Both the position numbers and the translations under genes were made by a program. Source: Microcoleus vaginatus WJT46-NPBG5 (GTDB lineage Bacteria; Cyanobacteriota; Cyanobacteriia; Cyanobacteriales; Oscillatoriaceae). Taken from it: DNA of 64,000 nt. The stretch lies in NCBI GenBank assembly GCA_019359355.1, contig JAHHHM010000015.1:109147-173146 (forward strand). Reading direction: 5' to 3'. The notes below the pieces were generated by a model. The model worked only from the letters and a program-made list of their open reading frames with translations, ran no database searches and had not been told where the DNA came from. Positions 1 to 64,000 of the stretch are shown here, one piece after another; position 1 is the stretch's first letter, and each line of letters begins with the position of its first letter.

Positions 1-744
1 ACCCCAGCGCATTAATAAATGGGCCATGCCATTCATTAAATCGATATCCGTTCCCGGTTGGATGGCAAGGTGTAAATCTGCGGCTTCTGCAGTGGTGGTG
101 CGGCGGGGATCGACCACAATCAGTTTGACGTTGGGGTTCTTTTTGTGGTGTTTCCGCAGCCGGTTGAAGAGAATGGGGTGACACTCTGCGGTGTTGGTGC
201 CAATTAGAAAAGCACAATCTGTCAATTCCAAATCTTCGTAGCAACAGGGGGGGCCATCAGAGCCAAAGCTTTGAATATAGCCAGAAACCGCACTGGACAT
301 ACACAGGCGGGAGTTGGCATCAAAATTATTAGTGCCCAAACACCCTTTCATCAGTTTCTGGGCAATGTAGTAGTCCTCGGTTTGAAACTGGCCGGAACCA
401 TACATACACAGGGCATCTGAACCTTGATTGAGGCGAACGGTTTGGATGCGATTGACGATAGCGTTGAGGGCTTCATCCCAACTGACGCGCTGGAAGGGTT
501 TATCAAGCGAGTCGCGCATCAGAGGATACTTCAGCCGGTCTTTTCCTAAAGATTCGGCAATTGTTGCACCCTTAACACAGACCATTCCCTGACTGGAGGG
601 GTGCGAGCGATCCCCCTGAACTTTCCATGTAGGAATGCCTTGAGTGTCTCGATGCGTGGGCTTACCGGCCACTGCTGGCGGCGAAACTTCTAAGCCACAG
701 CCAACACCACAATAAGGACAGAGGGTTTTAGTTGATTCAGTCAT
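1..744 (-). CDS. narB: Assimilatory nitrate reductase NarB, N-terminal part only; the 3' end runs off the window start
   Basis: Reverse translation from the ATG at 742-744 gives [20 protein letters not shown]..., a molybdopterin-oxidoreductase N-terminal Cys4 [4Fe-4S] motif typical of cyanobacterial NarB. It is the last gene of the nir/nrt cluster on this strand. No ORF is listed because the reading frame continues past the window edge. Confidence 0.85.
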
Positions 745-991
745 AATTCTTTCGACTGAGTTAATAAACAATCGATGCTTGGTGCGAAGTGAAACAAAAG
801 GTTTGGGGTGAAGAATAATAGTGTTCAGGTTTCAGGAAGAGGTTTCTCCTGAGACTTGGCACTTGTTTGCAATTTATAGTTTATCTTTCACGCTTGACCT
901 GTCTCACTTCTGTATCAGGGATCGCATTTGCCGGCACGAATCGTGTATCTTGCAATGTCTTGTTCAGCAAATGCGATTGCTTTTTCTTTGA

Positions 992-2733: not shown

Positions 2734-4131
2734 CTATTGAGAACTTACCTCTAACATTCCCGCCGGGTTCAGCACAACTTTGTACTGAGCGAACGGTTCT
2801 TGGGGAGTGTCACCGGCTTTATTTTCTGTAGACTTGACTAAAGTTGGGAAAGGAGTTTCTTGAAGATAATCCTTTGCAGCTTGATTGACAGATTCGTAGC
2901 TGACAATCTCTCCATCTTTCTTAACCTTGACCGAGTAAACTAAATTTTCTTGAAAGGTCGGAATCTGCTGCCAATTTTGGTCAATTTTGTCGTACAGCTT
3001 TTGCTTCAATTCTGCCAGTTCAGCCGCATCTGTAATGGCTAGATTCTTCACCTCTGGGGTTGTGTTCACAACCGGCTGTGTGGGAGTCGCGGCTGGAGTG
3101 GGAGAGATTGCAACGGGTTGCGCCGGCTGCTGATTCGCAGTTTTTGAGGTAGAAAGCGAGCGCATAAAATACAACCCAGCCACAGCCGCAACCGTCGTCA
3201 GCCCCAAGGCGGCTGAAGCTTTGAGTGCTAGAGCTTTTGAAGCGGGTTTCGAGGCCACTGGCTGCGAATCAGCAGCCGGTTCTTCCTCGGTGTGGGCAAA
3301 CCTGTGGAAAAGGAAATCTAAAGCGTGGTTACGCAAATCGTAGTAGCGCGGGTCTTCCATGATGCTGGCCCGGTTTCTTGGACGATCAAAGGGAATTTCT
3401 AACACTTCGCCAATATTCGCCGCTGGGCCATTGGTCATCATCACGAGCCGGTCAGCCAAAAACAGTGCCTCATCAATATCGTGGGTGATCATCAAGATCG
3501 TTACCCGAAACTCGCGCCAAATTTGCAGCAGTTCTTCTTGCAACTCTTCCTTGGTGATGGCATCTAACGCCCCAAACGGTTCATCCAGAATCAAAACTTG
3601 AGGCCGAATGGCCAGCGCCCGTGCGATTGCCACCCGCTGCTTCATCCCCCCCGACAGTTGACTGGGCCGCTTGTTCGCCGCTTCTGTCAGTCCAACCAGC
3701 GCCAAGTGTTCCTCAACAATAGCCGTTCTTTCAGCTTTAGATTTGTTGGGATACGCCGATTTCACCCCTAAGGCGACATTCTCAAACGCAGTCTTCCAAG
3801 GCAGCAACGAGTAATTTTGAAACACCATCATCCGGTCTGGGCCGGGTTTGGTGATCAGCGATCCCCGCAGTTTCACCTCTCCCTCACTTGGCTTGAGGAA
3901 GCCGGCAACCATATTCAGCAGGGTTGATTTACCACAGCCAGAGTGACCGATCAGGCAGACAAATTCACCCTCATAAACGGTGAGGTTGACATCTTCCACA
4001 ACTGAATACGGCCCTTTGGGCGTTGGGTAAATTTTAGAGACGTTCTCAATAACCAAAAACGGCTCACGGGTAGAGCTTTGAGGTGACAGTTGTGAGGTTT
4101 GAGTTAAAGAGGAGCTAGATAAGGATTGCAT
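2734..4131 (-). CDS. nrtD: Nitrate ABC transporter ATPase NrtD with an atypical C-terminal extension of about 190 aa
   Basis: Walker A GHSGCGKST, ABC signature LSGGMKQR and Walker B LILDEPF. After the ATPase there is a predicted TM helix (LGLTTVAAVAGLYF), a Pro/Thr-rich linker and a roughly 110-aa domain of unknown family. Confidence 0.85.
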   Translation of the reverse strand: MQSLSSSSLTQTSQLSPQSSTREPFLVIENVSKIYPTPKGPYSVVEDVNLTVYEGEFVCLIGHSGCGKSTLLNMVAGFLKPSEGEVKLRGSLITKPGPDRMMVFQNYSLLPWKTAFENVALGVKSAYPNKSKAERTAIVEEHLALVGLTEAANKRPSQLSGGMKQRVAIARALAIRPQVLILDEPFGALDAITKEELQEELLQIWREFRVTILMITHDIDEALFLADRLVMMTNGPAANIGEVLEIPFDRPRNRASIMEDPRYYDLRNHALDFLFHRFAHTEEEPAADSQPVASKPASKALALKASAALGLTTVAAVAGLYFMRSLSTSKTANQQPAQPVAISPTPAATPTQPVVNTTPEVKNLAITDAAELAELKQKLYDKIDQNWQQIPTFQENLVYSVKVKKDGEIVSYESVNQAAKDYLQETPFPTLVKSTENKAGDTPQEPFAQYKVVLNPAGMLEVSSQ

Positions 4132-4136
4132 AATCA

Positions 4137-4164
4137 GGGAATTGGGGATTGGGAATGGGCAGAT
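4137..4164. repeat. STRR1-like heptamer tandem repeat (GGGAATT GGGGATT GGGAATG GGCAGAT) immediately 5' of the nrtD start
   Basis: Direct reading of the sequence. It is the reverse complement of the CCCCA(A/G)T-type heptamers. Confidence 0.6.
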
Positions 4165-4206
4165 GTTTTAACTAAGTGCTGAGCGCGTTGTGTGCTCAGC
4201 ACTGAC

Positions 4207-6219
4207 TCAGGCTGCTTCGGTTGTTGGGGTATCAATATTGACTTCTTCGATGCGAATTTCGCGGTGGATGGTCAGCTTGTTGAGATAGCCGATGGGATCA
4301 TCGGGGTTGAAAACCATACTGTCAAACAGCTGGAAGCAGTGCCGGTCGGGTTCGGTATCGGGCCATCCCAACTGACGGGCGGCTTCACCGTAGAGATCGA
4401 CCCGGCGCACTCGTTCCAGAACTTCGAGCCAGTTTTTGGGGAACGGAGTAATGCCCCAACGCGCAAGCTGGGTTAAAATCCACAACCCTTCGACTCGTCC
4501 GGGGCAGTTGGTTTGTTCAATATGGAATTGGTTAAAGCGGGGGTAGGATTGGGGTTTTTGGCCGGCACCTAAGTTATAGGGATCGATGAAGCCAGGGCGC
4601 GTGTATTCGGCTGCGGAACCCACATATTGGGGCTGACAAAGCCACCCTAAAATTTCTTCCCGGTTGCGCCGGTCATCGCAATACTCGCAAGCTTCTAGCA
4701 AGGCTTTGACGAGGGCGATATGAGATTCTGGATATTGATTAACCCACTCCTCGCGCACGCCCAAAACTTTTTCTGGATGTCCCGGCCAAATATCAAGATC
4801 CGTGGCTATCACGAAGCCCAAATCTTCATAGACAGCGCGAGAGTTCCAGGGTTCGCCTACACAGTAGCCGTCAATATTGCCGGCTTTGAGGTTAGCAACC
4901 ATTTGTGCCGATGGAATAACGGTGAGATTCACGTCTCGGTCGGGATCAATGCCGCCGGCAGCCAGCCAGTAGCGCAACATCAGGTTGTGCATTGAGGCGG
5001 GATTCACGACTCCTAATGTATGAACTTTGTCAACTGATTGGGTAACAACCGCTTTGAGATCAGCGAGGGTGCGAACACCTTGTTGATATAACTGTTTGCT
5101 CAGAGTAATGGCGTTGCCGTTGCGGGCGAGAACGAGGGCCGTAACCATCGGCACCGACCTTGCCAAACCCAACCCCAACGTCATCGATAAGGGCATCGCA
5201 GCGGCCATCTGGGCGGCATCTAAGCGTCCCGTCGCTACCCCTTCGCTAATGGCTTTCCAACTCGGTTCGCGGCTGAGATTAACTTCTTCTAAACCATGCT
5301 TTTTAAAGAAGCCTTTTTCTTTGGCCACCACTAAGGGGGCACAATCTGTGAGGGGAATAAAACCGATGTCTAAATTAACCTTTTCTAAGCCATGACGGGC
5401 AATTGCCACAGATGCCGGTTGCTTGGCTTTGCGGCGCTTGTCGCGTTTCTGCTGGTTTAGGAAGTAGATAATTTCATTCCGCATGGCGTAGTAATTCGGA
5501 TGGTTCACAACCTCCATGCGGTGGCGGGGACGCGGGATAGGAACGTCTAAAATCTGGCCAATGTGAGATTCTGGCCCGTTGGTGAGCATCACGATCCGGT
5601 CAGACAGCAGCAATGCCTCATCCACATCATGGGTGACCATGATGCAGGTGACTTTGCTTTCCTCACAAATTTCCATCAACCGTTCTTGCAGTCCCCCCCG
5701 TGTCAAGGCATCTAAGGCACCAAACGGTTCATCTAATAGCAGCAGTTTGGGGCGAATTGCCAAAGCGCGGGCGATAGCGACACGCTGTTTCATCCCGCCT
5801 GATAGTTCACCAGGTCGCTTATCGGCAGCGTGTCGCAGTCCTACGAGGTCGATATGCTTTTCAATAATGCCCCGGCGTTCTCCTTTGGGAGTGTTCTGAA
5901 ATACTCGATTAACTGCCAGGGCAATGTTTTCGCGCACACTCAGCCAGGGCAACAGGGAGTAATTCTGAAACACAACCATGCGGTCTGGCCCTGGCCCTTT
6001 GACTTCGCGGCCCTCTAAAATAACGCCGCCTTTGCTTGCCCGATCTAAGCCGGCAACGATATTGAGCAAGGTGGATTTCCCGCAGCCGGAGTGGCCGATT
6101 AAGGAAATAAATTCTCCCTTTTTTATTTTCAGTTCAATATTTTTTAGGGCAACGTAGCTGCTTCCATCGGGCAGCGGAAAGGCTTTATCAATGTGATCGA
6201 CTTCTACAAATACGGACAT
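4207..6219 (-). CDS. nrtC: Nitrate ABC transporter ATPase NrtC with a C-terminal NrtA-like solute-binding domain
   Basis: ABC ATPase motifs (GHSGCGKST, LSGGMKQR, LLLDEPF) followed by a roughly 400-aa domain that is paralogous to NrtA (WLAAGGI.PD.DV, CVGEPWN). The start is set at the internal Met (MSVFVEVDH), because the upstream 15 codons of the longest ORF (which runs to 6264) are encoded by the STRR heptamer array. Confidence 0.85.
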   Translation of the reverse strand: MSVFVEVDHIDKAFPLPDGSSYVALKNIELKIKKGEFISLIGHSGCGKSTLLNIVAGLDRASKGGVILEGREVKGPGPDRMVVFQNYSLLPWLSVRENIALAVNRVFQNTPKGERRGIIEKHIDLVGLRHAADKRPGELSGGMKQRVAIARALAIRPKLLLLDEPFGALDALTRGGLQERLMEICEESKVTCIMVTHDVDEALLLSDRIVMLTNGPESHIGQILDVPIPRPRHRMEVVNHPNYYAMRNEIIYFLNQQKRDKRRKAKQPASVAIARHGLEKVNLDIGFIPLTDCAPLVVAKEKGFFKKHGLEEVNLSREPSWKAISEGVATGRLDAAQMAAAMPLSMTLGLGLARSVPMVTALVLARNGNAITLSKQLYQQGVRTLADLKAVVTQSVDKVHTLGVVNPASMHNLMLRYWLAAGGIDPDRDVNLTVIPSAQMVANLKAGNIDGYCVGEPWNSRAVYEDLGFVIATDLDIWPGHPEKVLGVREEWVNQYPESHIALVKALLEACEYCDDRRNREEILGWLCQPQYVGSAAEYTRPGFIDPYNLGAGQKPQSYPRFNQFHIEQTNCPGRVEGLWILTQLARWGITPFPKNWLEVLERVRRVDLYGEAARQLGWPDTEPDRHCFQLFDSMVFNPDDPIGYLNKLTIHREIRIEEVNIDTPTTEAA

Positions 6220-6236
6220 AATATTTTTTGAGGATT

Positions 6237-6336
6237 TGGGAATGGGGCATAGGGCATGGGGCATGGGGAATAGGGCATGGGACTAGAGGCTGGGGGGAAA
6301 GAGAAATGCCCAATCCTCAATCCCCAATGCCCCATT
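6237..6336. repeat. STRR-like heptamer array (GGGGCAT/AGGGCAT/GGGGAAT, 7 copies) followed by an inverted copy (ATGCCCA ATCCTCA ATCCCCA ATGCCCC), forming a potential long hairpin between nrtB and nrtC
   Basis: Direct reading. The two arms are reverse complements of each other. Confidence 0.6.
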
Positions 6337-6340
6337 TCAA

Positions 6341-7189
6341 TTAACCTTGTTTTTGTTCTGCCGGCACGACGATTGAGGCGATGTAGACAATGAGCCGGTC
6401 GAGGAGAAGTCCAACGACTCCGACGTAAATCAGGGCAACGATAATTTGGCTGAGTAAGGTGTTGTTATAGGCGTCCCAGATAAAGAAGCCGATACCCACA
6501 CCCCCGACTAGCATTTCTGCTGCGATAATTGCCAGCCATGATAAGCCGATGCCGATTCTTAAGCCGGTGAATATATAGGGAACTGTGGCGGGGAATAGGA
6601 TATTAAAAAAGTATTGCGGGCCGGATAATTGCAAGACTCTGGAAACATTTCGATAGTCTTGGGGTAATTGCTGAACGCCGACAGTCGTGTTGATAATAAT
6701 CGGCCAAACTGCAGTGATAAATATAACGAAGATCGCGGAGGGATTGCTTTGTTGAAAAGCGGCCAGAGAAATGGGTAGCCAAGCTAAGGGCGGAATGGTT
6801 CGCAAAACTTGAAAAATCGGGTCTAGGGCTTCGTAAAGAAGTTTATTAACGCCGATTAAGATTCCTAAAGCAATTCCCACGATGGCAGATAGGGAGAAGC
6901 CAATGGCAACTCGCTGCAATGAAGCGAAGATTTGCAAGGCTAAACCTTTGTCCGTGCCGCCGTTGTCAAAGAATGGGTTGATAATATACGGGTTCCAAGT
7001 TTCCGCAATCACTTGCATCGGCCCTGGCAATCCTTTTGAGCCGGCGGGGCAAACGATTTGCCAAATTACCAGAATAACGATGATGGCAACCAGGGGTCGA
7101 AGAACTTTTTTAGAGTTTTTTCCCAGATATTTAGTAATGGGATTCTGTGAAGTTGTGAAGCGTCCATTTCTGCTAATGTTGGCGGTCAT
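6341..7189 (-). CDS. nrtB: Nitrate ABC transporter permease NrtB
   Basis: 282-aa polytopic membrane protein with an ABC permease EAA-like loop. It sits between nrtA and nrtC. Confidence 0.9.
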   Translation of the reverse strand: MTANISRNGRFTTSQNPITKYLGKNSKKVLRPLVAIIVILVIWQIVCPAGSKGLPGPMQVIAETWNPYIINPFFDNGGTDKGLALQIFASLQRVAIGFSLSAIVGIALGILIGVNKLLYEALDPIFQVLRTIPPLAWLPISLAAFQQSNPSAIFVIFITAVWPIIINTTVGVQQLPQDYRNVSRVLQLSGPQYFFNILFPATVPYIFTGLRIGIGLSWLAIIAAEMLVGGVGIGFFIWDAYNNTLLSQIIVALIYVGVVGLLLDRLIVYIASIVVPAEQKQG

Positions 7190-7267
7190 TTCGTTTTTTG
7201 GATTGTGCTGGGTGAATGGGAAGCTAGGATTTGGGGATTAGGGAAGTTCCCTTTTCCCCGGCTTTGA

Positions 7268-8602
7268 CTAGACTTTTTTGATTTGGAGACTGCTTAAGTA
7301 TTCTTCGGGTTTTTCGGGATCGAATTTGATGCCGTCAAAGAAAGTTTCAACGCCACGAGATGTGCTGCTAGGAATTTCTGCTTGGGCAACTCCAAGGGCT
7401 TTGGCGGCTTCTTTCCACAAATCTTCCCGGTTAACTTTATCTACAAGTTCTTTAGTTTTTGTGTCAGCCGATATGTTGCCCCAACGAATGTTTTCTGTTA
7501 AAAACCAAAGGTCGTGGCTCTTGTAGGGATAGGAAGCGTTATCTGCCCAATATTTCATCAATAAGGGGCTGGACTGAACGACGGGGCGACCATCGCCATA
7601 ATCAATGTTGCCTTTGGAACGTTCGATAATGTCTTTAGCCGGCACTTTAAACCATTTGGCTTGGGAGACAATTTGGCACATTTCTTCTTTGTTTTCTGCC
7701 TTTTCACACCATTGTTGGGCTTCCAAAATTGCCATTAAGATTGCTTTGGCTGCTTTGGGATTTTTATCGACCCAATCTGCCCGCATGGCAAAGGCTTTTT
7801 CGGGGTGATCTTTCCAGAGTTCTCCAGTCACTAAGGCCGTGTAACCGGCTCCTTGGTTGACCAGTTGGGCGTTCCAGGGTTCACCTACGCAGAAGGCTTC
7901 CATGTTGCCGGTTTTCATGTTTGCCACCATCTGGGGTGGTGGGACGGGAACAACGGAAACATCTTGATCGGGAATAATGCCGCCGGCAGCCAGCCAGTAG
8001 CGCATCCAGAGGTCGTGTGTGCCCCCAGGAAAGGTGACGGCGGCTTTGAGGTCGCCTTTCCCGCTCGATTTGGCTTGTGCGAAAGAATCTTTCAGCCCTT
8101 TGCTGTCTAGACCGACTTTTAATTCTTTGTAGGTATTTGCGATGGAAATTGCTTGACCGTTGGTATTTAATCGCGCCATGAGGTACATGGGCACCGGCTG
8201 TTTGTTTTTGGTTTGTCCCAAGCTCATTAGGTAAGGCATGGGGCTGAGGATGTGCGCCCCATCAATGCCGCCGCCGCCTGAACCGAGTTCTAAGTTGTCG
8301 CGGGTGACGGGCCAAGATGCTTGTTTGACGACTTCCACACCTGTCATGCCGTACTTGGCAAACAAGCCTTTTTCTTGGGCGACAACCAGGGGGGCGGAAT
8401 CTGTGAGGGCGATGAATCCCAGTTTGGCGGTGGTGACTTCCGGGGCGTCGGCTGGGTTGATGTTGGCCGCCGGTGTGGGGGTAGAAGCGGCATTTGTTTT
8501 GCTGGTGTTAGTCGGGCCGGTGCTGCATCCATGAACGAGCAAGGTGCCGGCTGTGGCTGCGCCGGCGGTGAAGATGAATTTGCGTCTGGAAAGTTTCGAC
8601 AT
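7268..8602 (-). CDS. nrtA: Nitrate/nitrite ABC transporter substrate-binding lipoprotein NrtA
   Basis: Tat/lipoprotein-like N-terminus (RRKFIFTAGAATAGTLLVHGCS). Its body is paralogous to the NrtC C-terminal domain (LGFIALTDSAPLVVA, WLAAGGIIPDQDV, CVGEPWN). Confidence 0.9.
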   Translation of the reverse strand: MSKLSRRKFIFTAGAATAGTLLVHGCSTGPTNTSKTNAASTPTPAANINPADAPEVTTAKLGFIALTDSAPLVVAQEKGLFAKYGMTGVEVVKQASWPVTRDNLELGSGGGGIDGAHILSPMPYLMSLGQTKNKQPVPMYLMARLNTNGQAISIANTYKELKVGLDSKGLKDSFAQAKSSGKGDLKAAVTFPGGTHDLWMRYWLAAGGIIPDQDVSVVPVPPPQMVANMKTGNMEAFCVGEPWNAQLVNQGAGYTALVTGELWKDHPEKAFAMRADWVDKNPKAAKAILMAILEAQQWCEKAENKEEMCQIVSQAKWFKVPAKDIIERSKGNIDYGDGRPVVQSSPLLMKYWADNASYPYKSHDLWFLTENIRWGNISADTKTKELVDKVNREDLWKEAAKALGVAQAEIPSSTSRGVETFFDGIKFDPEKPEEYLSSLQIKKV

Positions 8603-8704
8603 CTTGATTTACCCGGTCTTTAGTTAATTTTTTGGTTGTGGTCTTTCAGCAAGCACCGTTTGTTTTCGCATAGCCTTTATGAGGCTCAACACCATAACCG
8701 GCAG

Positions 8705-10585
8705 TTAAGCATCAATGACGACTCGTCCAACAGGGTGAGCGCTACAGGCTAAAATCACGCCTTGAGTGCGCTCACTGTCTTCGAGGGCTTCGGGTGTTCC
8801 GTCATATTTCACTTCTCCTTCTAAAAGAATTTGCTTGCAGGTGCCGCAACTTCCCGACCGGCAACTGCTGGGAAGTTCGACGCCTTCTCGTTCTGCGACA
8901 TCTAAAATCAATTCGGAACTGTCACAGGCAAGTTCTTTGCCAGATTTCGCCAAGACGAGGACTGCCGGCTGGGCGTTAGGGGCTTTTGCACCGTTTGTCT
9001 GGGCCGTGTCGCTTGGTTGTGCCGGTGTTGCCGGTGCTTCGAGGATTTCTCCTTTCAGCTGTGCGCCGAAGTTTTCGATGAGTAGATGCCGCAACACCGG
9101 CTTGAGGTCTTCGCAGGGAACACCTTTGGTAACGCAGGTGCCGAGATGGGCGTCTTTGCCCACTTTGCCGCCCATGTAGATATCGACACCTTCAACAGCT
9201 TTGCCGTTTTTGCGGGCTTTGGTGCCCATGAGTCCGATATCTGCAACTTGCGGTTGACCGCAAGAGTTGGGGCAGCCGGTCCAGTGAATCCGCACAGGCC
9301 GGCTCAGGGACACTTCTTGTTCCAGTTCCGCAATCATTTCCATAGCGCGGTTTTTGGTTTCAATCAGCGCGAAGTTGCAGAATTGTGCGCCGGTGCATGA
9401 AATCAGCGCCCGTGTCAGGGGTGCGGGATTGATGGAGAATTTTTGCAGGATGGGTTCGCTTAAAAAGGCTTCTAAGCGAGAGTCGGGAATGTTGGGAATT
9501 AAGATATTTTGCTCGACGGTGAGGCGAATTTCGCCATTGCCGTAGACTTCCGCAACACGGGCAATGTCAAACATATCTGCGGCAAACAAACGCCCGACGG
9601 GAACGTGCATACCGGCAAAGTTTAAGCCGGCTTGCTTTTGCGGGAAAATGCCGAGGTGGTCGCGTTTTTCCCAGTCGAGTTCATCTTTGAGGGCAGCGGT
9701 TGGCAGTTCTCGCCCGAATTGCTTTTCTACGGCTGCGCGGAAGTTTTCCAAGCCCATTTCATCGATCAGCCACATCAGGCGGGCTTTCTGCCGGTTGGAT
9801 CGCAGTCCCTGATCCCGAAAGACAATTAAGATGGCGCGGCAGAGGTCAACCACGTCGTCGTTGGCGGGAACCCAAGCGTTGAGGGGAATTGCGGCTTCGC
9901 AACGTTTGGCGGAGAAGAAGCCACCGACGACGACGTTAAAGCCGAGTTGACCGTTGTTATAGGCGGGGACAAAGGCGATGTCGTTGATTTCGGCGTGGAC
10001 GGAGTTATCGCGTCCGCCTTCGATGGCAATGTTGAATTTGCGCGGCAGGTTGCTGAATTCTGGGTTGCCTTCGCCGCAGTTGGTGATCATGTCTTGAACT
10101 TTTTGGACAAGATCGCGGGTGTCTATTAATTCGTCTGCGTCGAGATCGGCAACGGGTGAGCCGGTGATGTTGCGAACGTTGTCCATGCCGGACTGGATGC
10201 TGGTGATGCCGGCGGATTTGAGTTTATTGAAGATATCCGGGACATCTTCAATTCTGATGCCGCGCAGTTGCAAATTTTGTCGGGTTGTGATGTCTGCGTA
10301 GCCTTCCCCGCCATAGCGCTGGATGATCTCGGCGAGGACGCGCATTTGCACAGCGTTGAGGATGCCACTGGCAATTCGCATCCGCATCATGAATTTGCCG
10401 GGAGTGACAGGGCGGAAGAAGATCCCTAACCATTTGAGCCGGTGTTCTCGGTCGGTTGCATCCATTGCTTCCCAGCCAATCTCCGCAAAATGATCGAGTT
10501 CAGCTTTGACTGCCAGCCCATCTTTTTCGGCTTTTAATTTTTCAAATTTGTTGAGGCTTGCTGTTGGTGTCTCTGCTACTGTCAT
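8705..10585 (-). CDS. nirA: Ferredoxin-nitrite reductase NirA fused to a C-terminal plant-type [2Fe-2S] ferredoxin domain
   Basis: Sulfite/nitrite reductase siroheme-[4Fe-4S] Cys motifs (CTGAQFCNFA, CPNSCGQP). The last 95 aa or so carry CRSGSCGTC...C, a Cys4 pattern of plant-type ferredoxins. Confidence 0.9.
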   Translation of the reverse strand: MTVAETPTASLNKFEKLKAEKDGLAVKAELDHFAEIGWEAMDATDREHRLKWLGIFFRPVTPGKFMMRMRIASGILNAVQMRVLAEIIQRYGGEGYADITTRQNLQLRGIRIEDVPDIFNKLKSAGITSIQSGMDNVRNITGSPVADLDADELIDTRDLVQKVQDMITNCGEGNPEFSNLPRKFNIAIEGGRDNSVHAEINDIAFVPAYNNGQLGFNVVVGGFFSAKRCEAAIPLNAWVPANDDVVDLCRAILIVFRDQGLRSNRQKARLMWLIDEMGLENFRAAVEKQFGRELPTAALKDELDWEKRDHLGIFPQKQAGLNFAGMHVPVGRLFAADMFDIARVAEVYGNGEIRLTVEQNILIPNIPDSRLEAFLSEPILQKFSINPAPLTRALISCTGAQFCNFALIETKNRAMEMIAELEQEVSLSRPVRIHWTGCPNSCGQPQVADIGLMGTKARKNGKAVEGVDIYMGGKVGKDAHLGTCVTKGVPCEDLKPVLRHLLIENFGAQLKGEILEAPATPAQPSDTAQTNGAKAPNAQPAVLVLAKSGKELACDSSELILDVAEREGVELPSSCRSGSCGTCKQILLEGEVKYDGTPEALEDSERTQGVILACSAHPVGRVVIDA

Positions 10586-10705
10586 GGGTTCTTTCGCTCT
10601 TGATTTTGTGTTTACAGGGAGGCAATTATTCAGCTAAGTCGCTGTTTATCTAGCGTTTAAAAGCTTTTTTGTTTCGCTTATATCTGGGATAGGAAAACTT
10701 TATTT

Positions 10706-10719
10706 GTATATTTCGTTAC
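10706..10719. promoter_or_regulatory. Candidate NtcA binding site GTATATTTCGTTAC (GTA-N8-TAC), 121 bp upstream of the nirA start. A -10-like ATAATA lies about 23 nt downstream on the minus strand.
   Basis: Perfect match to the NtcA consensus GTAN8TAC, found in the nirA operon 5' region. Confidence 0.5.
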
Positions 10720-10896
10720 AGATCGCAGCATTTGTTTATCATTCAGATTTTTGTTAATGGGTTGCAAGGTTATATTCTTTGACGGGCTTGGGTTTGGGTG
10801 AATGACCCTCATGCTCCTATATTGCAAATGATCAGCCTTCAGGCGCTTGTAAAAAGTGCGTTGTAGATAAGTTAAAGGCTGGAAACCGGAAATTTA

Positions 10897-10910
10897 GTAT
10901 AGTGAGTTAC
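10897..10910. promoter_or_regulatory. Second candidate NtcA box GTATAGTGAGTTAC, 312 bp upstream of nirA. A TAACTT (TAN3T) -10-like element lies 22 nt downstream on the minus strand.
   Basis: Perfect GTA-N8-TAC with the spacing to a TAN3T element seen at NtcA-activated promoters. Confidence 0.35.
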
Positions 10911-10955
10911 AAAATATTTCGAGATATGAAATCGATGCATTTCACTGATGCGTTT

Positions 10956-10989
10956 TTTACATCAAGCGTTTGTTTACATCAAGCGTTTG
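10956..10989. repeat. Tandem direct repeat, two copies of TTACATCAAGCGTTTG
   Basis: Direct reading. Confidence 0.6.
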
Positions 10990-11348
10990 ATTGAAGCCGC
11001 TAAACACAAATCTTAATGGTTGAAATTTAAGCAAACCGCTCACAGTGAGCATTCTGGGTAAATTTCAACGACTACTGAGATGAATTGGTGTGGGTGATTG
11101 TACGGAAGGTTGTCAGTGCTGGGACGTTGTGTCGGTGAAATTACTGAGCCGGTTTTTTCCTGGGATTCTCATTTTGAAGCACAGCAGCTCAAGCCCTGGA
11201 AATGTTGGTCTTGTCTGGGCGTCTAGATGGCCCTAGAGAGCTAAAGCGGTTGAAATAGCCAGGATTAGTGGACGGGGAAAGTTGAGGAAATCTATACCTA
11301 GCGCTATCTCCAGGGGATGCGCTTCACAGATATGACCATTCCTTACTG

Positions 11349-11564
11349 GTGAATGGGTGTGGGCTAACTATGACCCAACCCGATAGCAAGGTGGTCTACA
11401 AAAATGCCTTCGCTACTAATTACCCAATTAGCGATGCAAGACCGGCAGACATTATCTTAGGGGGCCGCACTGGTTGGAAGGTGGAAAACGAAAACAACAC
11501 TTTCAAAACCAAGAGCTGTAATCTTGAACACTATTTTGGCCTTGGCTTGCAGCATCTCTGTTGA
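11349..11564 (+). mobile_element. Possible DDE transposase C-terminal remnant, an IS fragment
   Basis: A 71-aa ORF encodes ...GRTGWKVENENNTFKTKSCNLEHYFGLG. This resembles the conserved C-terminal RWxIENxxF..LK...LEHNFGHG block that I recall from cyanobacterial DDE transposases. No intact upstream catalytic region is present. Confidence 0.3.
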
Positions 11565-12251
11565 TGAATCAGAACTGCTCTCTCCCCTGAAGCTTGATAA
11601 ACGATTCGCTCTCTAGACTTATCAGGAATGAGCTTGAGCAGACTGTGGGCCTGAGCCACACTGTCTCGGTCGATGAAACACCCTACAAAAGACTGGTTTA
11701 TCACAACAAAAAGATAACTAGCTAGCATGATGGCTCACTGGAAAGCGTATTCAGCAGATACCCCTACTCACCTATACACTCTATAAACTCCTGCTCTCCC
11801 ACTTCATCCGCTGTGCTCGTGTCTTATAACCACTCCAATTTCTGGGACTAATAAAGAAAATTGATAAGCAAATTTTATAAAAGCGATAAATTTATATACA
11901 AAATCTACGCTTTATTTAAAAACTTAAAAAATACTTTAATGGTACAATGTTAAGAAATCATGACATTAACTTTATCAAGTTGGCTAGGTAGGCATCAATG
12001 TGTCTATGTGTCTATGTAAATCTTGTTATTAAAATGTTGAGAAATGCAGCAGATGTTTTGTCTATCAGACATAAATCTCGTGGAGCTTGCATTACTCTTT
12101 TCAGTCTATGAAAAACAAATTTGAGACACTTATTTTGCTAACAAGCCAGAAATAAATTGGATTTATTTATTCTTATGTTTTAAAGAGACCTAGAGGGAAA
12201 ATGTAAAGATAAATTTTTAAAGATTACTGCTTAGTTACTATTGGGGAGTTT

Positions 12252-12920: not shown

Positions 12921-13002
12921 GAATTTTGGCATTGCTGTTGTCAAAGGATGAGTTTGAGCACGGCTGAAGACATATCTGCAAGCGCTTGCCGGTGCCGGCA
13001 GT

Positions 13003-46865: not shown

Positions 46866-47285
46866 TTGTCAATGTCTCCAACTAATCCTAGTCTCGATCT
46901 TCCCTTTCACCGCCTACGTGAAGTGCGCGACGCTGTGCTCCACTTGCACAAAGCGCTGCTGCACTCAGAACGAGGAGTCTATGAGCAGTCTCATGGACCC
47001 ATCAAGTCAAAAGGGGAATTTTTCCAGCTTGTTGTCGGTGATGAATGGTTTAGCTGGTTGCGCCCATTGTCTCAGTTTATTGTCCAAATTGATGAAGCTG
47101 TCAGCGCCAAAGAACCGATTACATTGGATAGAGCAAATGAGCTATTAAACGAAGCGCGTAGCTTGCTTCACCCGGCAGAAGAAGGGACCCCGCGAGAGCA
47201 GCGTTACTATCAAGCAATTCAGCGCGACCCTGATATTGCGTTTATGCACGCAGCAGTCTCAAATTTGCTATCGCGTGACCGCTAA
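46866..47285 (+). CDS. Hypothetical protein, 139 aa
   Basis: ORF with native GC content. No recognisable motifs. Confidence 0.4.
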   Translation: MSMSPTNPSLDLPFHRLREVRDAVLHLHKALLHSERGVYEQSHGPIKSKGEFFQLVVGDEWFSWLRPLSQFIVQIDEAVSAKEPITLDRANELLNEARSLLHPAEEGTPREQRYYQAIQRDPDIAFMHAAVSNLLSRDR

Positions 47286-47625
47286 TTCATTGGCAATCGC
47301 TCTTTCAATCCGAATTATGATTGAGCGATTGTCGAGTTTTTTTTATTTTTAATGAACAAGAAAGTAGGGTTATACTAACTAGGTTGTGTTGGCAGAGTTG
47401 CATTTAGTCACACGTTTGGAATTTTTAGATTGTCAGGTGTCGCAGGAGGATTTGCTTAGGAGGTGTGCATAGCAGAGTTAGGAGTGAGATAAGATGTAAC
47501 GCTTTATGGTAAAGTTAAAGGAGCGGTTAGAGGAAAAGATTCGCTTGAATCTGGAGGAGTTGATATATATTGACTAATTCTAGGATTCTACTACTTAATT
47601 AATAGCAATTATTTAATCAAAAAAT

Positions 47626-49014: not shown

Positions 49015-49970
49015 CAAGATTAGATGATATCAGACAGGATCGTTTGGTGGCACCTGCTAAATATCTAGATTTCATAAATGATAGACGTCGTAAATTTGGC
49101 TCTAAACCAATATATTGTTTGTTTGAAGGTGCAGACGACTCCAAGTATTATGGGATAAGAATTGACACTATTATTAGCCCTGTTGTCTCTCCTCAAAACT
49201 TAAATTGTGGAGGGAAAAAAGAAGTGTTAAGATTCCATAGAATAATAAAAGCTCATAAGGAATATCAGGATACTAAGTTTGCCTACTTTATTGATAGAGA
49301 TTTTGACGAATCAATTAGGAGAGGTGATATACATGATATTTACGAAACTCCTGTCTATTCGATAGAGAATTTTTATACTTCAATAAATGTTTTTCAAAAA
49401 ATATTAGAAAACGAGTTCAAATTAACACCGTTGGATGACGACTTTAAAAAATGTAGCGAGTTATATCAAGCTCGTCAGAGGGAATTTCATCAAGAAACTA
49501 AATTATTAAATGCTTGGGTATCTTGTCAGAGAAAATATCAACATCACCAAGAATATTCAGGAAAATTTAAAAGAGCAAGCTTAAAAGACTTTAAGCTTGA
49601 TGATCATATATTTGTAAGTTTAGATAAAGTGACATCGAACTATACGCTTGAAACTTTAAATGAGTGTTTTTCAGAAGCTTACCATCCTACAGAAGATGTT
49701 ATACAGCAGAAACTAGCGGAATTTGATAGTGTAGATTGCCAAAAAACTTTTAGAGGAAAATTTGAAATTTTTTTTCTATTTAAGTTTTTTGTAAAATTAA
49801 ATAGAAAAAAAAACTCAAAATATTTCTCACAAAAGCCAAAAAAGAAAAAAGTTTCTTTGAACATCTCAATAGATAATATTATTACAACTTTCTCCGGTTA
49901 TGCTGAGACACCAAATTGTCTTAGAGCTTATCTAGAATCATTCAAAGACATAGAAAATACTTCTATTTAA
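49011..49970 (+). CDS. DUF4435/OLD-type TOPRIM nuclease-like protein, AriB-like
   Basis: TOPRIM-like acidic motifs: CLFEGADDSKYYG (the E-G-x-x-D block) and YFIDRDFDE (DxD). 319 aa. It is translationally coupled to the upstream ATPase. Confidence 0.6.
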   Translation: MTRLDDIRQDRLVAPAKYLDFINDRRRKFGSKPIYCLFEGADDSKYYGIRIDTIISPVVSPQNLNCGGKKEVLRFHRIIKAHKEYQDTKFAYFIDRDFDESIRRGDIHDIYETPVYSIENFYTSINVFQKILENEFKLTPLDDDFKKCSELYQARQREFHQETKLLNAWVSCQRKYQHHQEYSGKFKRASLKDFKLDDHIFVSLDKVTSNYTLETLNECFSEAYHPTEDVIQQKLAEFDSVDCQKTFRGKFEIFFLFKFFVKLNRKKNSKYFSQKPKKKKVSLNISIDNIITTFSGYAETPNCLRAYLESFKDIENTSI

Positions 49971-50159
49971 AAAAGAGAATTACAGCTATGACTTCATAAT
50001 TAGAAAGAGACGGTAGCGACATCACTAAAAAGATGGCAGGCTACCACCAATTCCATGCCGTCAATAAAGCCATTGAGCGCACCATAGCGGCAACCAACCC
50101 ATGATAGGAACTGCTACAAGTCGCTGCCGGTGACGTTGCCTTCACCAAGAGTTATAAAT

Positions 50160-53110: not shown

Positions 53111-54838
53111 TTAATATTTCCGTTCCTGCGGTTGAAATAGGGTAATAGCAACAGGCCGGTATTGCAAATCAATGCCGGCCGGCGAATAAAATGCGAGGGT
53201 ATGTTTCAAGAAATTCTCATCATCGCGCTCAGTGAAATCCTCCCGGCAATGAGCGCCCCGACTTTCTTGCCGGCTCAATGCAGAAGTGAGAATCACCTTA
53301 CCGACAATCATTAAGTTCCGCAGTTCAATTGCCTCAAGAATTTCAGTATTCCAGCAACTTCCCTTGTCATCTAAATAGATTTTCTGGTATTGTTGCTCTA
53401 ATACTTCCAGTTGATTTAAACCTTCGCGCATTGTTTCCTCAGTGCGAAACACCCCGCAATGATCCGTCATGCAATCTTGGAAAGATTGACGCAACTGCCC
53501 GATGCGAAGTTTACCGGCTTGATTTAGCAGCGATTGAATTTGTTTAACCGCAGCCGTTAAATAGCGTTGCTCATCCACTTGCGGCAGCTTGCGATTTTGC
53601 ACGTATTGAGCGATCGCCGCACCCGTCAGCTTGCCATAAACCACACATTCCAGCAGGGAATTACTTCCCAGCCGGTTTGCGCCGTGAACCGATACGCAAG
53701 CCGCCTCACCGGCAGCAAATAAGCCTTCGACAAATCCATCAACCCCACTCCGCACCTTGCCATCAATATTGACGGGTATGCCGCCCATCGAGTAGTGAAC
53801 AGTCGGACGGATGGGCATTGGCTTTTCAACCGCATCAATTCCCAGCAGCCGGTGTGCTTCTTCCCAAGCGAAAGGAACGCGAAGCATAATTTTCTCGCGC
53901 CCCATGTGCCGCAAATCCAGATACACAAAAGGGCCACCCGCACTGCCATCCGGATGAATACCTCGTCCTGCGCGAATTTCTTTGGTAATCGCGCGAGAGG
54001 TAATATCACGCGGCGCGAGTTCCATGCGACTGGGGGCGTAAGTTGCCATGAAGCGATCGCCTTCGCTGTTGATTAAATAGGCACCTTCACCGCGCACGGC
54101 TTCCGAAATCAACACACCCACAGGATACAAGCCGGTGGGATGGAATTGCACGAACTCCATATCCTGTAAAGGAATGCCGGCAAGAGCAGACATCGCCAAG
54201 CCGTCGCCGGTGGAGGCAAAATCATTCGAGGTGGTATTATAAGCACGACCATAACCGCCGGTGGCAAACATCACCGCCTTCGCACGCAGCACAGCCAGCT
54301 TGCCATCATCGATGCGGTACATGACAACGCCTTTAGCTTGCCCATCTTCCAAAATCATCTGCAAGACGTACCACTCATCATAGATATGGACACCATACCG
54401 GCGCAGGTTGTTAACCAATTCGTGTAAGATTGCGTGGCCGGTTTTGTCCGCCGCATAGCAAGTGCGGTTGTGAGAATGCCCGCCAAAGGCACGCTGGGCA
54501 ATGCGTCCATCGGGCAACCGGGAGAACAAAACGCCCATGTGTTCCAAATCAATCACCACATCAGGCGCTTCTTTGGCAAGAATTTCCACCGCATCTTGAT
54601 CGGCAAGATAGTCTGAACCCTTGACGGTATCAAACGCGTGGGCTTTCCAATCGTCCTCTGAATCAACGTTTTTGAGTGAGGCAGCCATGCCACCTTGGGC
54701 GGCAACCGAGTGAGAGCGAATCGGGTGGGTTTTCGCCACCACCGCTACTTTTAAATTCGGATCGGTGCGGGCAATTTCGACGGCGGCGCGACAGCCGGCT
54801 AATCCACCGCCAACAATAATCACATCATGCTCTAGCAT
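53111..54838 (-). CDS. sdhA: Succinate dehydrogenase/fumarate reductase flavoprotein subunit
   Basis: FAD-binding N-terminus VIIVGGGLAGCRAA, the H45-type SHSVAAQGG motif, and an RxxGxxS C-terminal domain. Confidence 0.9.
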   Translation of the reverse strand: MLEHDVIIVGGGLAGCRAAVEIARTDPNLKVAVVAKTHPIRSHSVAAQGGMAASLKNVDSEDDWKAHAFDTVKGSDYLADQDAVEILAKEAPDVVIDLEHMGVLFSRLPDGRIAQRAFGGHSHNRTCYAADKTGHAILHELVNNLRRYGVHIYDEWYVLQMILEDGQAKGVVMYRIDDGKLAVLRAKAVMFATGGYGRAYNTTSNDFASTGDGLAMSALAGIPLQDMEFVQFHPTGLYPVGVLISEAVRGEGAYLINSEGDRFMATYAPSRMELAPRDITSRAITKEIRAGRGIHPDGSAGGPFVYLDLRHMGREKIMLRVPFAWEEAHRLLGIDAVEKPMPIRPTVHYSMGGIPVNIDGKVRSGVDGFVEGLFAAGEAACVSVHGANRLGSNSLLECVVYGKLTGAAIAQYVQNRKLPQVDEQRYLTAAVKQIQSLLNQAGKLRIGQLRQSFQDCMTDHCGVFRTEETMREGLNQLEVLEQQYQKIYLDDKGSCWNTEILEAIELRNLMIVGKVILTSALSRQESRGAHCREDFTERDDENFLKHTLAFYSPAGIDLQYRPVAITLFQPQERKY

Positions 54839-61260: not shown

Positions 61261-63261
61261 ATGACCAATATTTTTTGGGTGGCTTTGAAACTTTGTCCAC
61301 CGATTGTGGGATGTACTTTGCTTGCTACCACTGGCGTTTTTGCGGCTGAGCCGATGCTGCCATCTTGCTGTAATCTTGCAAGTTTAGTAAAAAAAATAGA
61401 AACCTGTGCCGGTGAAATGAATTGTGGCACAAGCGAACAAAGTCTTCAGAATCCAGGAATCTTGGCCCCACGAGGACAGAAACACGAGGGCGTTGAGAAG
61501 AAATTAGTTGCACAAATTACGCAACCTGAGCCAAAAACTCACACTCTGCCGGCTTCTTCCTTGCCTTCTACACCGGCTGTCTCACAACAATTGAATTTGA
61601 ATTCCCTCAGTGTGATGGCAGTGCCTCGCATTGCGCCGAAAAAAGCGCTGAGGGCAATAGACGCTTCCCAGATCAATGCCGGCACAGAGGAATTGAGCGA
61701 TCCACTCGCTCAGGTAACTTCGGTTTCTCAACTATCGGATGTGCAGCCGACAGATTGGGCATTCCAAGCTTTGCAAAACTTAGTTGAGCGCTACGGTGCG
61801 ATATCGGGCTATCCAGACGGAACCTTTCGTGGCAACCGGGCGATGACGCGCTACGAATTCGCTGCCGGTTTGAATGCAGCCCTCGAAGCCATCAATCAAC
61901 TACTCAGCACAAGTGAGCCAGAGGGGGTGCGTCAGGAAGATTTGGCGACACTGCAACGTTTAAGCGCAGATTTTGGCACAGAATTAGCACAAGTACGGGC
62001 GCGAATTGATACGCTACAAGCACGCGGAGATGAACTAGAGGCGAATCAGTTTTCTACAACAACCAAGCTTAACGGTTTGGTTAGTTTCAATGTGGCGAAA
62101 GCAAACGCCGGCGGAGATGTCAGAGTTGAAAGAACTGATCCCAATGACATTTTTAGTACGGCGGCGCGAGGGGCTGATGGCAAGCCAATCGTTACCACAG
62201 TCGAGGAAGATGCCAACCTCACCTTTAGTGAGAGCATTGTCTTGTTTCTCACCACATCCTTCACCGGCAAGGATAATTTGTTTATAACTTTGCAGGCCGG
62301 CAATGGCAATACTTCTGCAAATCACTATACGTCTGCCGGTTTTTATGGCACTTTTGGGGCACCAGTTTTAGACTTAACGCCTAGTGCGGTTGCCAATGAT
62401 TTGGTTTTGTCGGAAGCTGCCTACTCGTTTCCCGTAAACGATTCGTTGCAAGTCGTGGTGGCTCCCCGGATCTTGTGGCTACGCTATTTTGACACAAACT
62501 CGTTTACCTCTGGCGCTGGCAAGGGCGCGACTGGCAACAATACGTTTGGCAGTCCTCTTGTCCAAGATCCTGGAAGGGGAGCCGGTGCTTTCGTGCTTTG
62601 GCGTTTGAATGAACAGTTGAATCTGAATTTGGGCTATGTGGCAAGCCCTGCTGCCGGTAGCCCCAGCACAGGGTTATTTAATGGCACCCGTGCTTTTACG
62701 GCTCAACTGACTTATTCTCCCATTCGCACGATTAATCTCAGGTTCCTCTATGATCGCTCAACCATTCAGCCGGTTGATGGACAAATTAGAACTCGACCGA
62801 TTATGGGGGCAGCAGATGACGGTTTTGGTGGGGCGCTTGAGGATGCCACCGCTGACACTTTTGGATTTAATTTTGATTGGTTAGCCACGCCTCGCTTGGG
62901 CTTTTTTGGGCGATATACTTACGCAAAGACCCATTTAGAACCGGCAACTAGAGGTGTGGCAAGTGGCGACATTCGGGCGCAGTCGGTGCAATTGGGCGTT
63001 GCTTTCCCCGATCTCGGTAAACGGGGGGCAATGGCGACACTGGCGTATGTAGTGCCGTTTAGTGTTTTGGATGGCCGGCAATTTCTAGTTTCAGGTGCCG
63101 GTGATGGGGGGATCGAGTATGAGGTTGAGCTGACTTATTATTTGCCGGTGACGGATAATATTGCAATTCTTCCGGCCTTTTATTTTGTCGGCAATGCCAA
63201 TAATTTTGACGACAACCCAAATATCTATGTAGGGACTGTGCAAACACAATTTTCGTTCTAA
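61261..63261 (+). CDS. Outer-membrane porin with an N-terminal SLH domain and a C-terminal OprB-family beta-barrel (SomA/SomB-like)
   Basis: Signal peptide. SLH motif (QPTDWAFQALQNLVERYGAISGYPDGTFRGNRAMTRYEFAAGLN), a coiled-coil linker, and a long barrel with alternating hydrophobic residues that ends in ...QTQFSF. Confidence 0.8.
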   Translation: MTNIFWVALKLCPPIVGCTLLATTGVFAAEPMLPSCCNLASLVKKIETCAGEMNCGTSEQSLQNPGILAPRGQKHEGVEKKLVAQITQPEPKTHTLPASSLPSTPAVSQQLNLNSLSVMAVPRIAPKKALRAIDASQINAGTEELSDPLAQVTSVSQLSDVQPTDWAFQALQNLVERYGAISGYPDGTFRGNRAMTRYEFAAGLNAALEAINQLLSTSEPEGVRQEDLATLQRLSADFGTELAQVRARIDTLQARGDELEANQFSTTTKLNGLVSFNVAKANAGGDVRVERTDPNDIFSTAARGADGKPIVTTVEEDANLTFSESIVLFLTTSFTGKDNLFITLQAGNGNTSANHYTSAGFYGTFGAPVLDLTPSAVANDLVLSEAAYSFPVNDSLQVVVAPRILWLRYFDTNSFTSGAGKGATGNNTFGSPLVQDPGRGAGAFVLWRLNEQLNLNLGYVASPAAGSPSTGLFNGTRAFTAQLTYSPIRTINLRFLYDRSTIQPVDGQIRTRPIMGAADDGFGGALEDATADTFGFNFDWLATPRLGFFGRYTYAKTHLEPATRGVASGDIRAQSVQLGVAFPDLGKRGAMATLAYVVPFSVLDGRQFLVSGAGDGGIEYEVELTYYLPVTDNIAILPAFYFVGNANNFDDNPNIYVGTVQTQFSF

Positions 63262-64000
63262 CTGAGTTCTTGGCGCTGTAGTAACACCTGATATCCGGTT
63301 GAACGACTCATCCGAGGTTTTTGAACGCTTGCCGGCATCACAACAGTGCCGGTGTCTTGATCTGGCTGCGCTGAAATCTCCACAGAAATATGAATTTCTT
63401 GTAAAGAGATTTGAGAAGATAGTGTAAAGCCGTAGATATTGAGATTTTGCATCATCTATCTTAGGAGGTATATTTACGGAGTAATAATCCCTAGTTCAGC
63501 TAAACAGACTGAGCGTGAGACCCGGATTTCTCACCACGATTTCCAAAGGCTCATAAAACCTAGATTGACGGTCAAATACGGCGTTCAACACTCCGTCAAA
63601 ATTTTTGGTCTGTCAAAAATATCCAAAACCCCTTCTAGGTAAAGGTTTTGAGGAATGTAATCGCGAACTTGTGAGAAATTAGGGTCAGAGCCATTAGCTC
63701 ATAAGATTACTGAAATCAGGTTTTCGTCTAACCACTCGTCCCGGCTGTGGATACAGCCTCTACTAGATCAAGCATATGCTTTAACCAGTTCCTTGTGAGC
63801 TAAAAGATTCTTGCTCCCATTGAGAAGGCGCGATAATTGACCTTGCTGCTCTAATTGCTGCTGCCGTTCCCTTATACCAAATCCGGTTATGCTAGACTAC
63901 TTATGTTTTCTCAAAATAAATTTGATAACAATTATGCCGAGAAAAGCCTACTTAGCCGATTATCTCACGCCAAGTGAACTGAAAGAAAAGTATCTAAAAG

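Follow-up and report, generated by a model that had tools for sequence, protein, structure and literature searches.

Why cyanobacteria carry thousands of copies of the octamer HIP1 (highly iterated palindrome 1, GCGATCGC) has been an open question for 30 years, and lineages that have swapped HIP1 for another palindromic methyltransferase target are the best natural experiments for addressing it. Here we describe a candidate for such a swap in a stretch of cyanobacterial DNA of 64,000 nucleotides (nt), called the window below (GC content 45.7%), in which HIP1 is nearly absent and the degenerate hexamer RCCGGY (R, purine; Y, pyrimidine) is hyperabundant. Of 97 cyanobacterial genomes surveyed earlier, three combined low HIP1 with another hyperabundant palindrome (Elhai 2015, Life 5:921, PMC4390886). 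In Oscillatoria PCC 10802, described there as having an "alternative rCCGGy (DmtD)", the observed/expected ratio (O/E) of HIP1 is 5, the top 8-mer is CACCGGCA, the O/E values of GCCGGC, GCCGGT, ACCGGC, and ACCGGT are 4.93, 5.98, 5.98, and 0.59, and the preferred flanks are cACCGGCa/tGCCGGTg (Elhai 2015, PMC4390886). This genome has one DmtD-type 5-methylcytosine (m5C) methyltransferase, OSC10802-RS19505, the Anabaena homologue of which methylates the first C, and the published interpretation of the signature is the combined action of methyltransferase and repair (Elhai 2015, PMC4390886). In the same work, exceptional HIPs are regarded as sporadic and as not persisting in clades, and sites are modeled as saturating near 1 per kb, a nearby site cancelling the advantage of a new one (Elhai 2015, PMC4390886). 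Other alternative HIPs are GGCGCC in Calothrix PCC 7103 and GCsGC in Cyanothece PCC 7822 (Elhai 2015, PMC4390886) and GGGATCCC in Synechococcus JA strains, described in a study that also reported stronger conservation of HIP1 than neutrality would predict (Xu et al. 2018, PMC5861425). A CCGG-type HIP goes unmentioned in the later HIP1 papers (Xu 2018, PMC5861425, and a 2026 preprint covering 389 genomes), and a literature search for the octamer TGCCGGCA, the palindrome that first drew attention in the window, yielded incidental occurrences only, for example in primers and phage termini.

A first-pass annotation of the window, made by eye, had tallied 35 to 40 copies of TGCCGGCA, with about 1 expected, and about 3 copies of HIP1. 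The exact counts are 39 for TGCCGGCA, compared with 1.41 ± 1.19 in dinucleotide-preserving shuffles (maximum of 5 in 100 shuffles), and 3 for HIP1 (53610 to 53617, 54053, and 59368; 0.5 per 10 kb). Each of the 18 octamer coordinates listed in that annotation falls within 14 nt of a real site (5 are exact, namely 929, 6359, 38875, 44516, and 44687; 2 are off by 1 to 2 nt, and the rest by 4 to 14 nt), and this agreement, together with counts far above those of the shuffles, confirms the observation. RCCGGY is found at 335 sites across positions 1 to 64000 (5.2 per kb), against 46.6 ± 7.1 in dinucleotide-preserving shuffles; 39 of these sites have the flanks of TGCCGGCA and 52 those of CACCGGCA/TGCCGGTG. 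They divide into 146 GCCGGC, 108 GCCGGT, and 81 ACCGGC, with no ACCGGT at all, and the order-0 O/E values of the RCCGGY forms are 16, 8.7, and 0. Seventy-eight percent of the 430 CCGG tetramers in the window lie inside GCCGGC, GCCGGT, or ACCGGC, and the remaining twelve forms in the NCCGGN table sum to 95. The first of the 39 octamers, at 929 to 936, is intergenic, and at 12988 to 13000 two sites abut, GCCGGT at 12988 being followed by GCCGGC at 12994, the latter within TGCCGGCA at 12993 to 13000. The excess of octamer and hexamer is genuine and strongly non-random.

The repeated unit is the degenerate hexamer RCCGGY minus ACCGGT, that is, GCCGGC/GCCGGT/ACCGGC, and not the palindromic octamer that had been proposed. 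The Markov expectation for TGCCGGCA climbs with the order of the model, from 0.67 (order 0) to 11.6 (order 3), 28.7 (order 4), and 34 (order 6), leaving a maximal-order O/E of 1.15, which locates the excess in the hexamer core. Independent flanks on the two half-sites likewise predict 34 octamers where 39 are observed, and Markov orders 4 to 6 and flank independence together rule out a strict octameric HIP with an 8-bp excess beyond its 6-bp core. The commonest 8-mer is in fact the non-palindromic CACCGGCA/TGCCGGTG (52 sites). The base before the GCC half-site is T in 49% of cases (61% in spacers), and that before the ACC half-site is C in 47% (44% in spacers); both preferences are weak and are present at every codon position and in spacers, and TGCCGGCA is no more than two copies of the commoner half-site paired symmetrically. 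Information content amounts to 0.08 bit at each position adjoining the hexamer and to no more than 0.02 bit further out. A longer repeat element is excluded by this near-zero information outside the hexamer, and a DNA uptake sequence or dispersed repeat of at least 9 bp or with conserved flanks is ruled out in the same way. Site spacing is close to exponential and the scatter essentially random, with no periodicity or regular interval, and Rfam and tRNA scans of the window gave no matches.

Forty open reading frames, covering 80% of the window, were taken as genes, and their content marks a cyanobacterium (nirA-nrtABCD, PBS-lyase HEAT proteins, DUF3370, SLH-OprB porins, and Uma2). The first-pass annotation had placed the motif in all three frames and in intergenic DNA, and had argued from this that it is not a codon-usage artifact, naming the distribution over codon positions as a check. 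Both statements hold. Coding sites of the three forms number 144, 57, and 84 in phases 0, 1, and 2 (285 in total), compared with 43, 8, and 25 after synonymous codons were shuffled within genes, so that enrichment is present in every phase and not in one frame (3.4- to 6.9-fold by phase). Relative to these shuffles, GCCGGC, GCCGGT, and ACCGGC are raised 3.8-, 3.2-, and 4.1-fold (z = 10 to 19), and ACCGGT stands at 0 against 13.5 expected. Fifty sites are intergenic (3.8 per kb at 39% GC), and the spacers hold 49 sites where 3.0 are expected from spacer composition, a 16-fold excess. Where the protein sequence allows one of the three forms (permissive positions), 284 of 487 coding positions are filled (58%), compared with none of the 174 positions that permit ACCGGT. 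The same bias is visible in the choice of glycine codon: GGC follows threonine 51 times and GGT never does, whereas GCC (alanine) is followed by GGC in 59 cases and by GGT in 34 (P = 5e-8).

Synonymous positions show the motif acting as a sink for sequences one step away. Among Ala-Gly pairs, GCC-GGC and GCC-GGT are observed 59 and 34 times where 13.3 and 8.1 are expected, and all eight sequences one substitution away are depleted, to 14 in total against 73 expected; they include GCA-GGC (1 against 13.5), GCG-GGC (2 against 10.3), GCT-GGC (3 against 11.7), GCC-GGA (1 against 8.6), and GCC-GGG (1 against 7.4). The six pairs two steps away number 30 against 43 expected. Over all permissive positions, the observed/expected ratio is 3.8 for the motif itself (distance 0), 0.30 one substitution away (distance 1), and 0.74 two substitutions away (distance 2). 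The depletion at distance 1 recurs in PCC 10802, in the Ancylothrix group, and in L002 (the nirA locus of a metagenome-assembled genome labeled Halomicronema sp.), where the ratio is 0.31 to 0.53, compared with 0.96 in HIP1-type controls. Divided by class, one-step neighbors show ratios of 0.16 to 0.26 for transversions and 0.47 to 0.93 for transitions.

The distribution of the signature among relatives was followed in 80 nirA loci (the window's copy included) and 8 sdhA loci. In the window, nirA-nrtABCD lies at 2734 to 10585 on the minus strand, with 40 of 66 permissive positions filled, and sdhA, which was used to find relatives, at 53111 to 54838 on the minus strand, with 15 of 20 filled. 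The best species-representative genomes for NirA are L002 (79% identical) and L003, the nirA locus of PCC 10802 (76%); the sole identical NirA came from a Logan assembly (SRR35147778). SdhA is 91% identical to that of Ancylothrix sp. C2, 90% to that of an ENA metagenome scaffold, 87% to that of a 7.25-Mb JGI contig, and 86% to that of PCC 10802, and Ancylothrix sp. C2 is thus the closest relative found. Just three of the 80 nirA loci, those of the window, L002, and L003, lack HIP1 and have an RCCGGY density of 3 to 6.5 per kb. In the remaining 77, HIP1 stands at 2 to 22 per 10 kb, and RCCGGY never exceeds 1.5 per kb and is often absent. Occupancy of permissive positions in nirA-nrtABCD is accordingly 0.61 in the window, 0.50 in L002, and 0.63 in L003, compared with 0 to 0.18 in the 77 others, although the number of permissive positions per 100 codons is equal across cyanobacteria, showing that the proteins have not been bent to fit the motif. 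Four of the eight sdhA loci (L082, L083, L084, and L086) carry the signature; those of Ancylothrix C2, the ENA scaffold, the JGI contig, and PCC 10802 have 4.5 to 5.8 sites per kb and 0 to 3 HIP1, and the remaining four (SdhA 84 to 87% identical) belong to ordinary HIP1 genomes. Overall, all signature-bearing loci have 0 to 3 HIP1 copies, and the pattern is reversed in more than 80 other loci from cyanobacteria.

A tree of NirA plus NrtABC (about 2,000 amino acids [aa]) unites the window, L002, and L003 with 100/100 bootstrap support, and their sister group (Floridaenema and Phormidium R1S1) has HIP1 and no RCCGGY. The bootstrap value in a tree of NirA only is 19/50, and a tree of SdhA only places PCC 10802 beside a HIP1-type genome. 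The form mix differs among the relatives: GCCGGC makes up 44% of sites in the window, 14 to 26% in L002, C2, and the ENA scaffold, and 35 to 43% in PCC 10802 and the JGI contig; TGCCGGCA has a density of 0.61 per kb in the window and 0 to 0.46 per kb in relatives; and ACCGGT is missing in the window alone, the relatives having 1 to 9 copies per 21 to 44 kb. Judged from these loci, the signature is common to at least six related genomes with GC contents from 41 to 55%. The first-pass annotation was right that it is HIP-like and distinct from HIP1, and its further proposal that it is strain specific does not stand. The sharing of the trait by at least six genomes is also at odds with Elhai's view of exceptional HIPs as sporadic and not persisting in clades. 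The source of the window is probably a filamentous cyanobacterium of the Ancylothrix/'Oscillatoria' PCC 10802 group in which rCCGGy has replaced HIP1, an attribution that we weigh jointly with the methylation-linked mechanism considered below.

Seven of the nirA loci (L032, L037, L038, L039, L041, L047, and L063) have 0 to 1 RCCGGY in 5 to 22 kb, and all of these but L047 have none; HIP1 or its CGATCG core is abundant in them, and this total avoidance of the hexamer favored in the window's group includes the sister lineage in the NirA-NrtABC tree. The NirA protein of the window (8705 to 10585, minus strand) has 626 aa, with a 2Fe-2S ferredoxin domain (PF00111) fused at its C terminus; it matches Oscillatoriales relatives over residues 1 to 626, and Microcystis, Moorena, Crocosphaera, and others over residues 1 to about 511 only.

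The reading that we favor, and hold to be probable, is that rCCGGy replaces HIP1 through a mismatch-repair bias tied to a DmtD-type m5C methyltransferase. An orphan enzyme of this type would methylate the first C of RCCGGY, and a methylation-linked bias in mismatch correction would favor the strand with the complete site bearing G-m5C, such that sequences one substitution away would be converted to sites more often than sites would be lost. The outcome would be a neutral molecular drive, or ratchet, acting mainly on synonymous and non-coding positions and needing time to act on newly acquired DNA. ACCGGT, which would not be favored because it has no G-m5C, would drain into ACCGGC or GCCGGT, and in the window organism it may in addition have been removed by restriction-site avoidance. 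The pattern observed at synonymous sites fits the resolution of any mismatch toward the complete-site strand, as in Elhai's methyl-directed ratchet. A methyltransferase with a repair bias had also been suggested in the first-pass annotation, and the idea is plausible.

Several results weigh against this account. In spacers, one-step neighbors are not depleted (55 against 58 expected), unlike at synonymous sites; they may, we conjecture, be refilled by a much larger two-step pool. The footprint predicted for m5C deamination is inconsistent: RTCGGY/RCCGAY, the class produced by a transition at the outer C/G, is at expectation in the window (13 against 14) and strongly depleted in PCC 10802 (1 against 10.9; L003 plus L086). 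At 5.2 sites per kb, with occupancy maintained at 0.62 to 0.71 where another site lies 30 to 400 nt away, there is no set-point near 1 per kb, and the saturation part of Elhai's model therefore does not fit; the drive looks autonomous at each site. No DNA methyltransferase or repair gene was seen among the genes of the window, and a search for m5C methyltransferase motifs in the window and about 1.7 Mb of compared loci, run without a DmtD or M.Cfr10I reference sequence, found none. Finally, repair bias and direct selection predict near-identical sequence patterns and are inseparable from sequence alone. As a separate observation, the contrast in RTCGGY/RCCGAY between the window and PCC 10802 may reflect GC pressure (46% versus 54%).

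Direct selection would maintain the sites for a HIP1-like function, such as that of a protein-binding site serving chromosome organization, recombination, or transformation, with RCCGGY taking over the role of HIP1. It would suit the reported conservation of HIP1 itself beyond neutral expectation (Xu et al. 2018, PMC5861425), the loss of HIP1 that always accompanies the gain of RCCGGY in the loci examined, and the persistence of the signature over at least six diverged genomes (41 to 55% GC). It would also suit the sites shared by orthologues of the window and PCC 10802, which are slightly above saturation (27 against 21.8, P = 0.002); sharing between the window and L002, however, is at expectation (13 against 11.4), and that between L002 and L003 is 16 against 13.0. 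Sharing is mostly explained by saturation, and we rejected positional conservation as a sign of selection. A binding site would further have to be reconciled with only about 6 informative bp (+0.08 bit for each flank), near-exponential spacing without regularity, wide variation in density and form mix among relatives (GCCGGC, 14 to 44%), and the lack of any adjustment at the amino acid level, and we consider this explanation unlikely. Less likely again is very-short-patch (VSP) repair of the Dcm/Vsr type tied to an RCCGGY m5C methyltransferase, which would over-produce the methylated site by correcting T:G to C:G. This is the classical route to an over-represented methylated site, as for CCWGG in Escherichia coli. 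RCCGGY is, moreover, an m5C target in cyanobacteria (Elhai 2015, PMC4390886). Vsr-type repair acts on T:G alone, however, and only transition neighbors should then drain, whereas the transversion neighbors GCA-GGC and GCG-GGC are depleted as much as or more than GCT-GGC, the class ratios point the same way (0.16 to 0.26 for transversions, 0.47 to 0.93 for transitions), and GCTGGC/GCCAGC is not depleted relative to control genomes (1.2 times the control level). The 9- to 16-fold excess is also far above known VSP effects. The equal depletion of transversion neighbors argues against a T:G-only mechanism and rules out VSP repair acting alone, and a Vsr-type origin seems very improbable.

The least credible alternative, to which we attach almost no weight, explains the excess through bias in codons, dipeptides, or GC, or through a dispersed repeat or uptake sequence in which CCGG happens to occur. 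Phase 0, which encodes Ala-Gly and Thr-Gly, is indeed the commonest (144 of 285 coding sites), and site density correlates with GC (r = 0.60), but the excess survives shuffles that preserve codon usage and protein, in all phases; spacers are enriched 16-fold; and orthologues in 77 other cyanobacteria, with equal permissive positions, have just 0 to 18% of them filled. These three results exclude codon or dipeptide bias, and the lack of information beyond the positions adjoining the hexamer (at most 0.02 bit) leaves no repeat element. A further question concerns only the total absence of ACCGGT, which an AgeI-like restriction system in the window organism, and not the ratchet, might have caused. 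ACCGGT is present in all relatives and fills none of its 174 permissive positions in the window, and 18 of the 64 palindromic hexamers have no copy there, compared with 5 of 2,016 non-palindromic pairs, a difference that indicates very strong restriction-site avoidance. ACCGGT is, however, a one-step neighbor of two favored forms, and part of its loss would be expected anyway, given that other one-step classes are depleted to 0.16 to 0.47; in addition, no restriction gene was seen. A restriction system is thus a serious possibility for ACCGGT, if somewhat short of an even one.

The avoidance of palindromes in the window suggests a very large restriction-modification load. Other absent palindromes are AGGCCT, AGTACT, CACGTG, CCATGG, CCCGGG, CCGCGG, CTCGAG, GAGCTC, GCATGC, GGATCC, GGCGCC, GGGCCC, GGTACC, GTCGAC, TACGTA, TGCGCA, and TTCGAA; the absent palindromes are each expected 9 to 18 times, and 27 of the 64 palindromes have two copies or fewer. 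The five absent non-palindromic pairs resemble degenerate restriction sites (AvaI, CYCGRG; AvaII, GGWCC; NspI, RCATGY; BanII, GRGCYC). Many of the hexamers absent from the window are also missing from the loci of relatives.

The motif is unevenly represented in DNA that may have been acquired, and the suggestion in the first-pass annotation that it could mark foreign DNA is borne out in two places. The low-GC island noted there as motif free (47.3 to 50.0 kb) lies within a stretch of 3.3 kb at 34% GC, 46785 to 50126, that has no site, where 8.5e-6 such gaps are expected by chance; this stretch is probably recently acquired DNA. It contains a gene pair on the plus strand (47626 to 49014 and 49011 to 49970; 30% GC) that looks like a PARIS-type anti-phage system, an AAA_15/AAA_21 ATPase matching AriA (7e-31) and a DUF4435 protein matching AriB (6.6e-39). 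This island contains no RCCGGY, and none of its 9 permissive positions is filled. A second gap, 13032 to 14887, has 42% GC, which is near the window average, with 0.02 such gaps expected. It lies inside a gene on the minus strand (13003 to 16272) for a putative NACHT-HEAT STAND NTPase of 1,089 aa, assigned by matches to NACHT, HEAT-repeat, and NCC-H domains, for which PADLOC gave no match. Only 5 of its 19 permissive positions are filled, compared with 58% overall (P = 0.005), and the gene may be a more recent acquisition. That it is motif poor at ordinary GC makes the motif informative beyond GC content, and motif density is usable as a composition-independent flag for recently acquired DNA in genomes of the RCCGGY type. 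The near-absence also noted at 10.6 to 12.25 kb is real in that the AT-rich spacer upstream of nirA (10586 to 12251) has only two sites, at 11148 and 11441, but with 0.24 such gaps expected it is low without being statistically significant.

Elsewhere in the window, 20600 to 37475 on the minus strand is occupied by signaling genes, namely a response-regulator GGDEF-EAL gene, a response regulator, and four PAS-rich histidine kinases (519 to 1,349 aa), and runs of comparable kinases also flank sdhA in the loci of Ancylothrix C2 and the ENA scaffold. Near sdhA in two HIP1-type relatives (L087, 13410 to 17160; L089, 12752 to 16457), N6_Mtase/MmeI-like and Type_ISP_C parts are present as separate genes. 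These split genes look like a Type ISP restriction-modification enzyme, with HicA/HicB toxin-antitoxin genes between and beside them.

The rCCGGy swap was previously known from one genome and now extends to the window organism and at least four further relatives, which supply replicate genomes of graded divergence and differing GC. That sites occupy 58% of the codon positions open to them, and do so without leveling off at 1 per kb, shows the extent of the process, and the dmtD orthologue and heteroduplex repair are concrete targets for methylome and repair work. More tentatively, and with the chances somewhat against it, rCCGGy may be a stable, inherited replacement for HIP1 across the Ancylothrix/PCC 10802 group, maintained by a site-autonomous, methylation-linked repair drive that fills about 60% of synonymous opportunities without a ceiling of about 1 per kb. 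If this is true, a stable, group-wide drive would contradict the published model twice, in the non-persistence of exceptional HIPs and in the set-point near 1 per kb, and the rCCGGy group would serve as a natural comparison in studying the function of HIPs.

How, then, does the window compare with known systems? Taken feature by feature at the level of sequence, it reproduces each property of the rCCGGy alternative HIP described in 2015; the signature is not new, and is of a known kind in a different organism and group. As in PCC 10802, HIP1 is nearly absent, all RCCGGY forms but ACCGGT are strongly over-represented, CACCGGCA/TGCCGGTG leads the 8-mers, the flank preferences are identical, and the density of GCCGGC is similar (2.3 per kb in the window, about 1.9 per kb in PCC 10802). 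The two nevertheless differ in GC (46% in the window versus 54%) and in protein sequence (NirA 76% and SdhA 86% identical), in ACCGGT (wholly absent versus an O/E of 0.59), and in TGCCGGCA (0.61 per kb versus 0.3 to 0.46 per kb). The T/A flank of the window extends to GCCGGC as well, making the palindromic TGCCGGCA prominent, unlike in PCC 10802. With canonical HIP1 (GCGATCGC; DmtA, GATC, and DmtC, CGATCG), the window motif shares a short, GC-rich palindromic core with an orphan-methyltransferase target, and it is likewise hyperabundant in all frames and in spacers, lineage specific, and missing from foreign DNA. HIP1 is a strict 8-mer at about 1 per kb, whereas the window motif is a degenerate 6-mer of other sequence at about 5 per kb. 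The GGCGCC of Calothrix (0 copies in the window), the GCsGC of Cyanothece, and the GGGATCCC of Synechococcus JA are also palindromes at methyltransferase targets that replace HIP1, but the motifs differ. Dcm/Vsr repair on CCWGG in enterobacteria is similar in that the frequency of an m5C target is raised by biased repair, whereas the effect in the window exceeds it by an order of magnitude and reaches beyond T:G (transition) neighbors.

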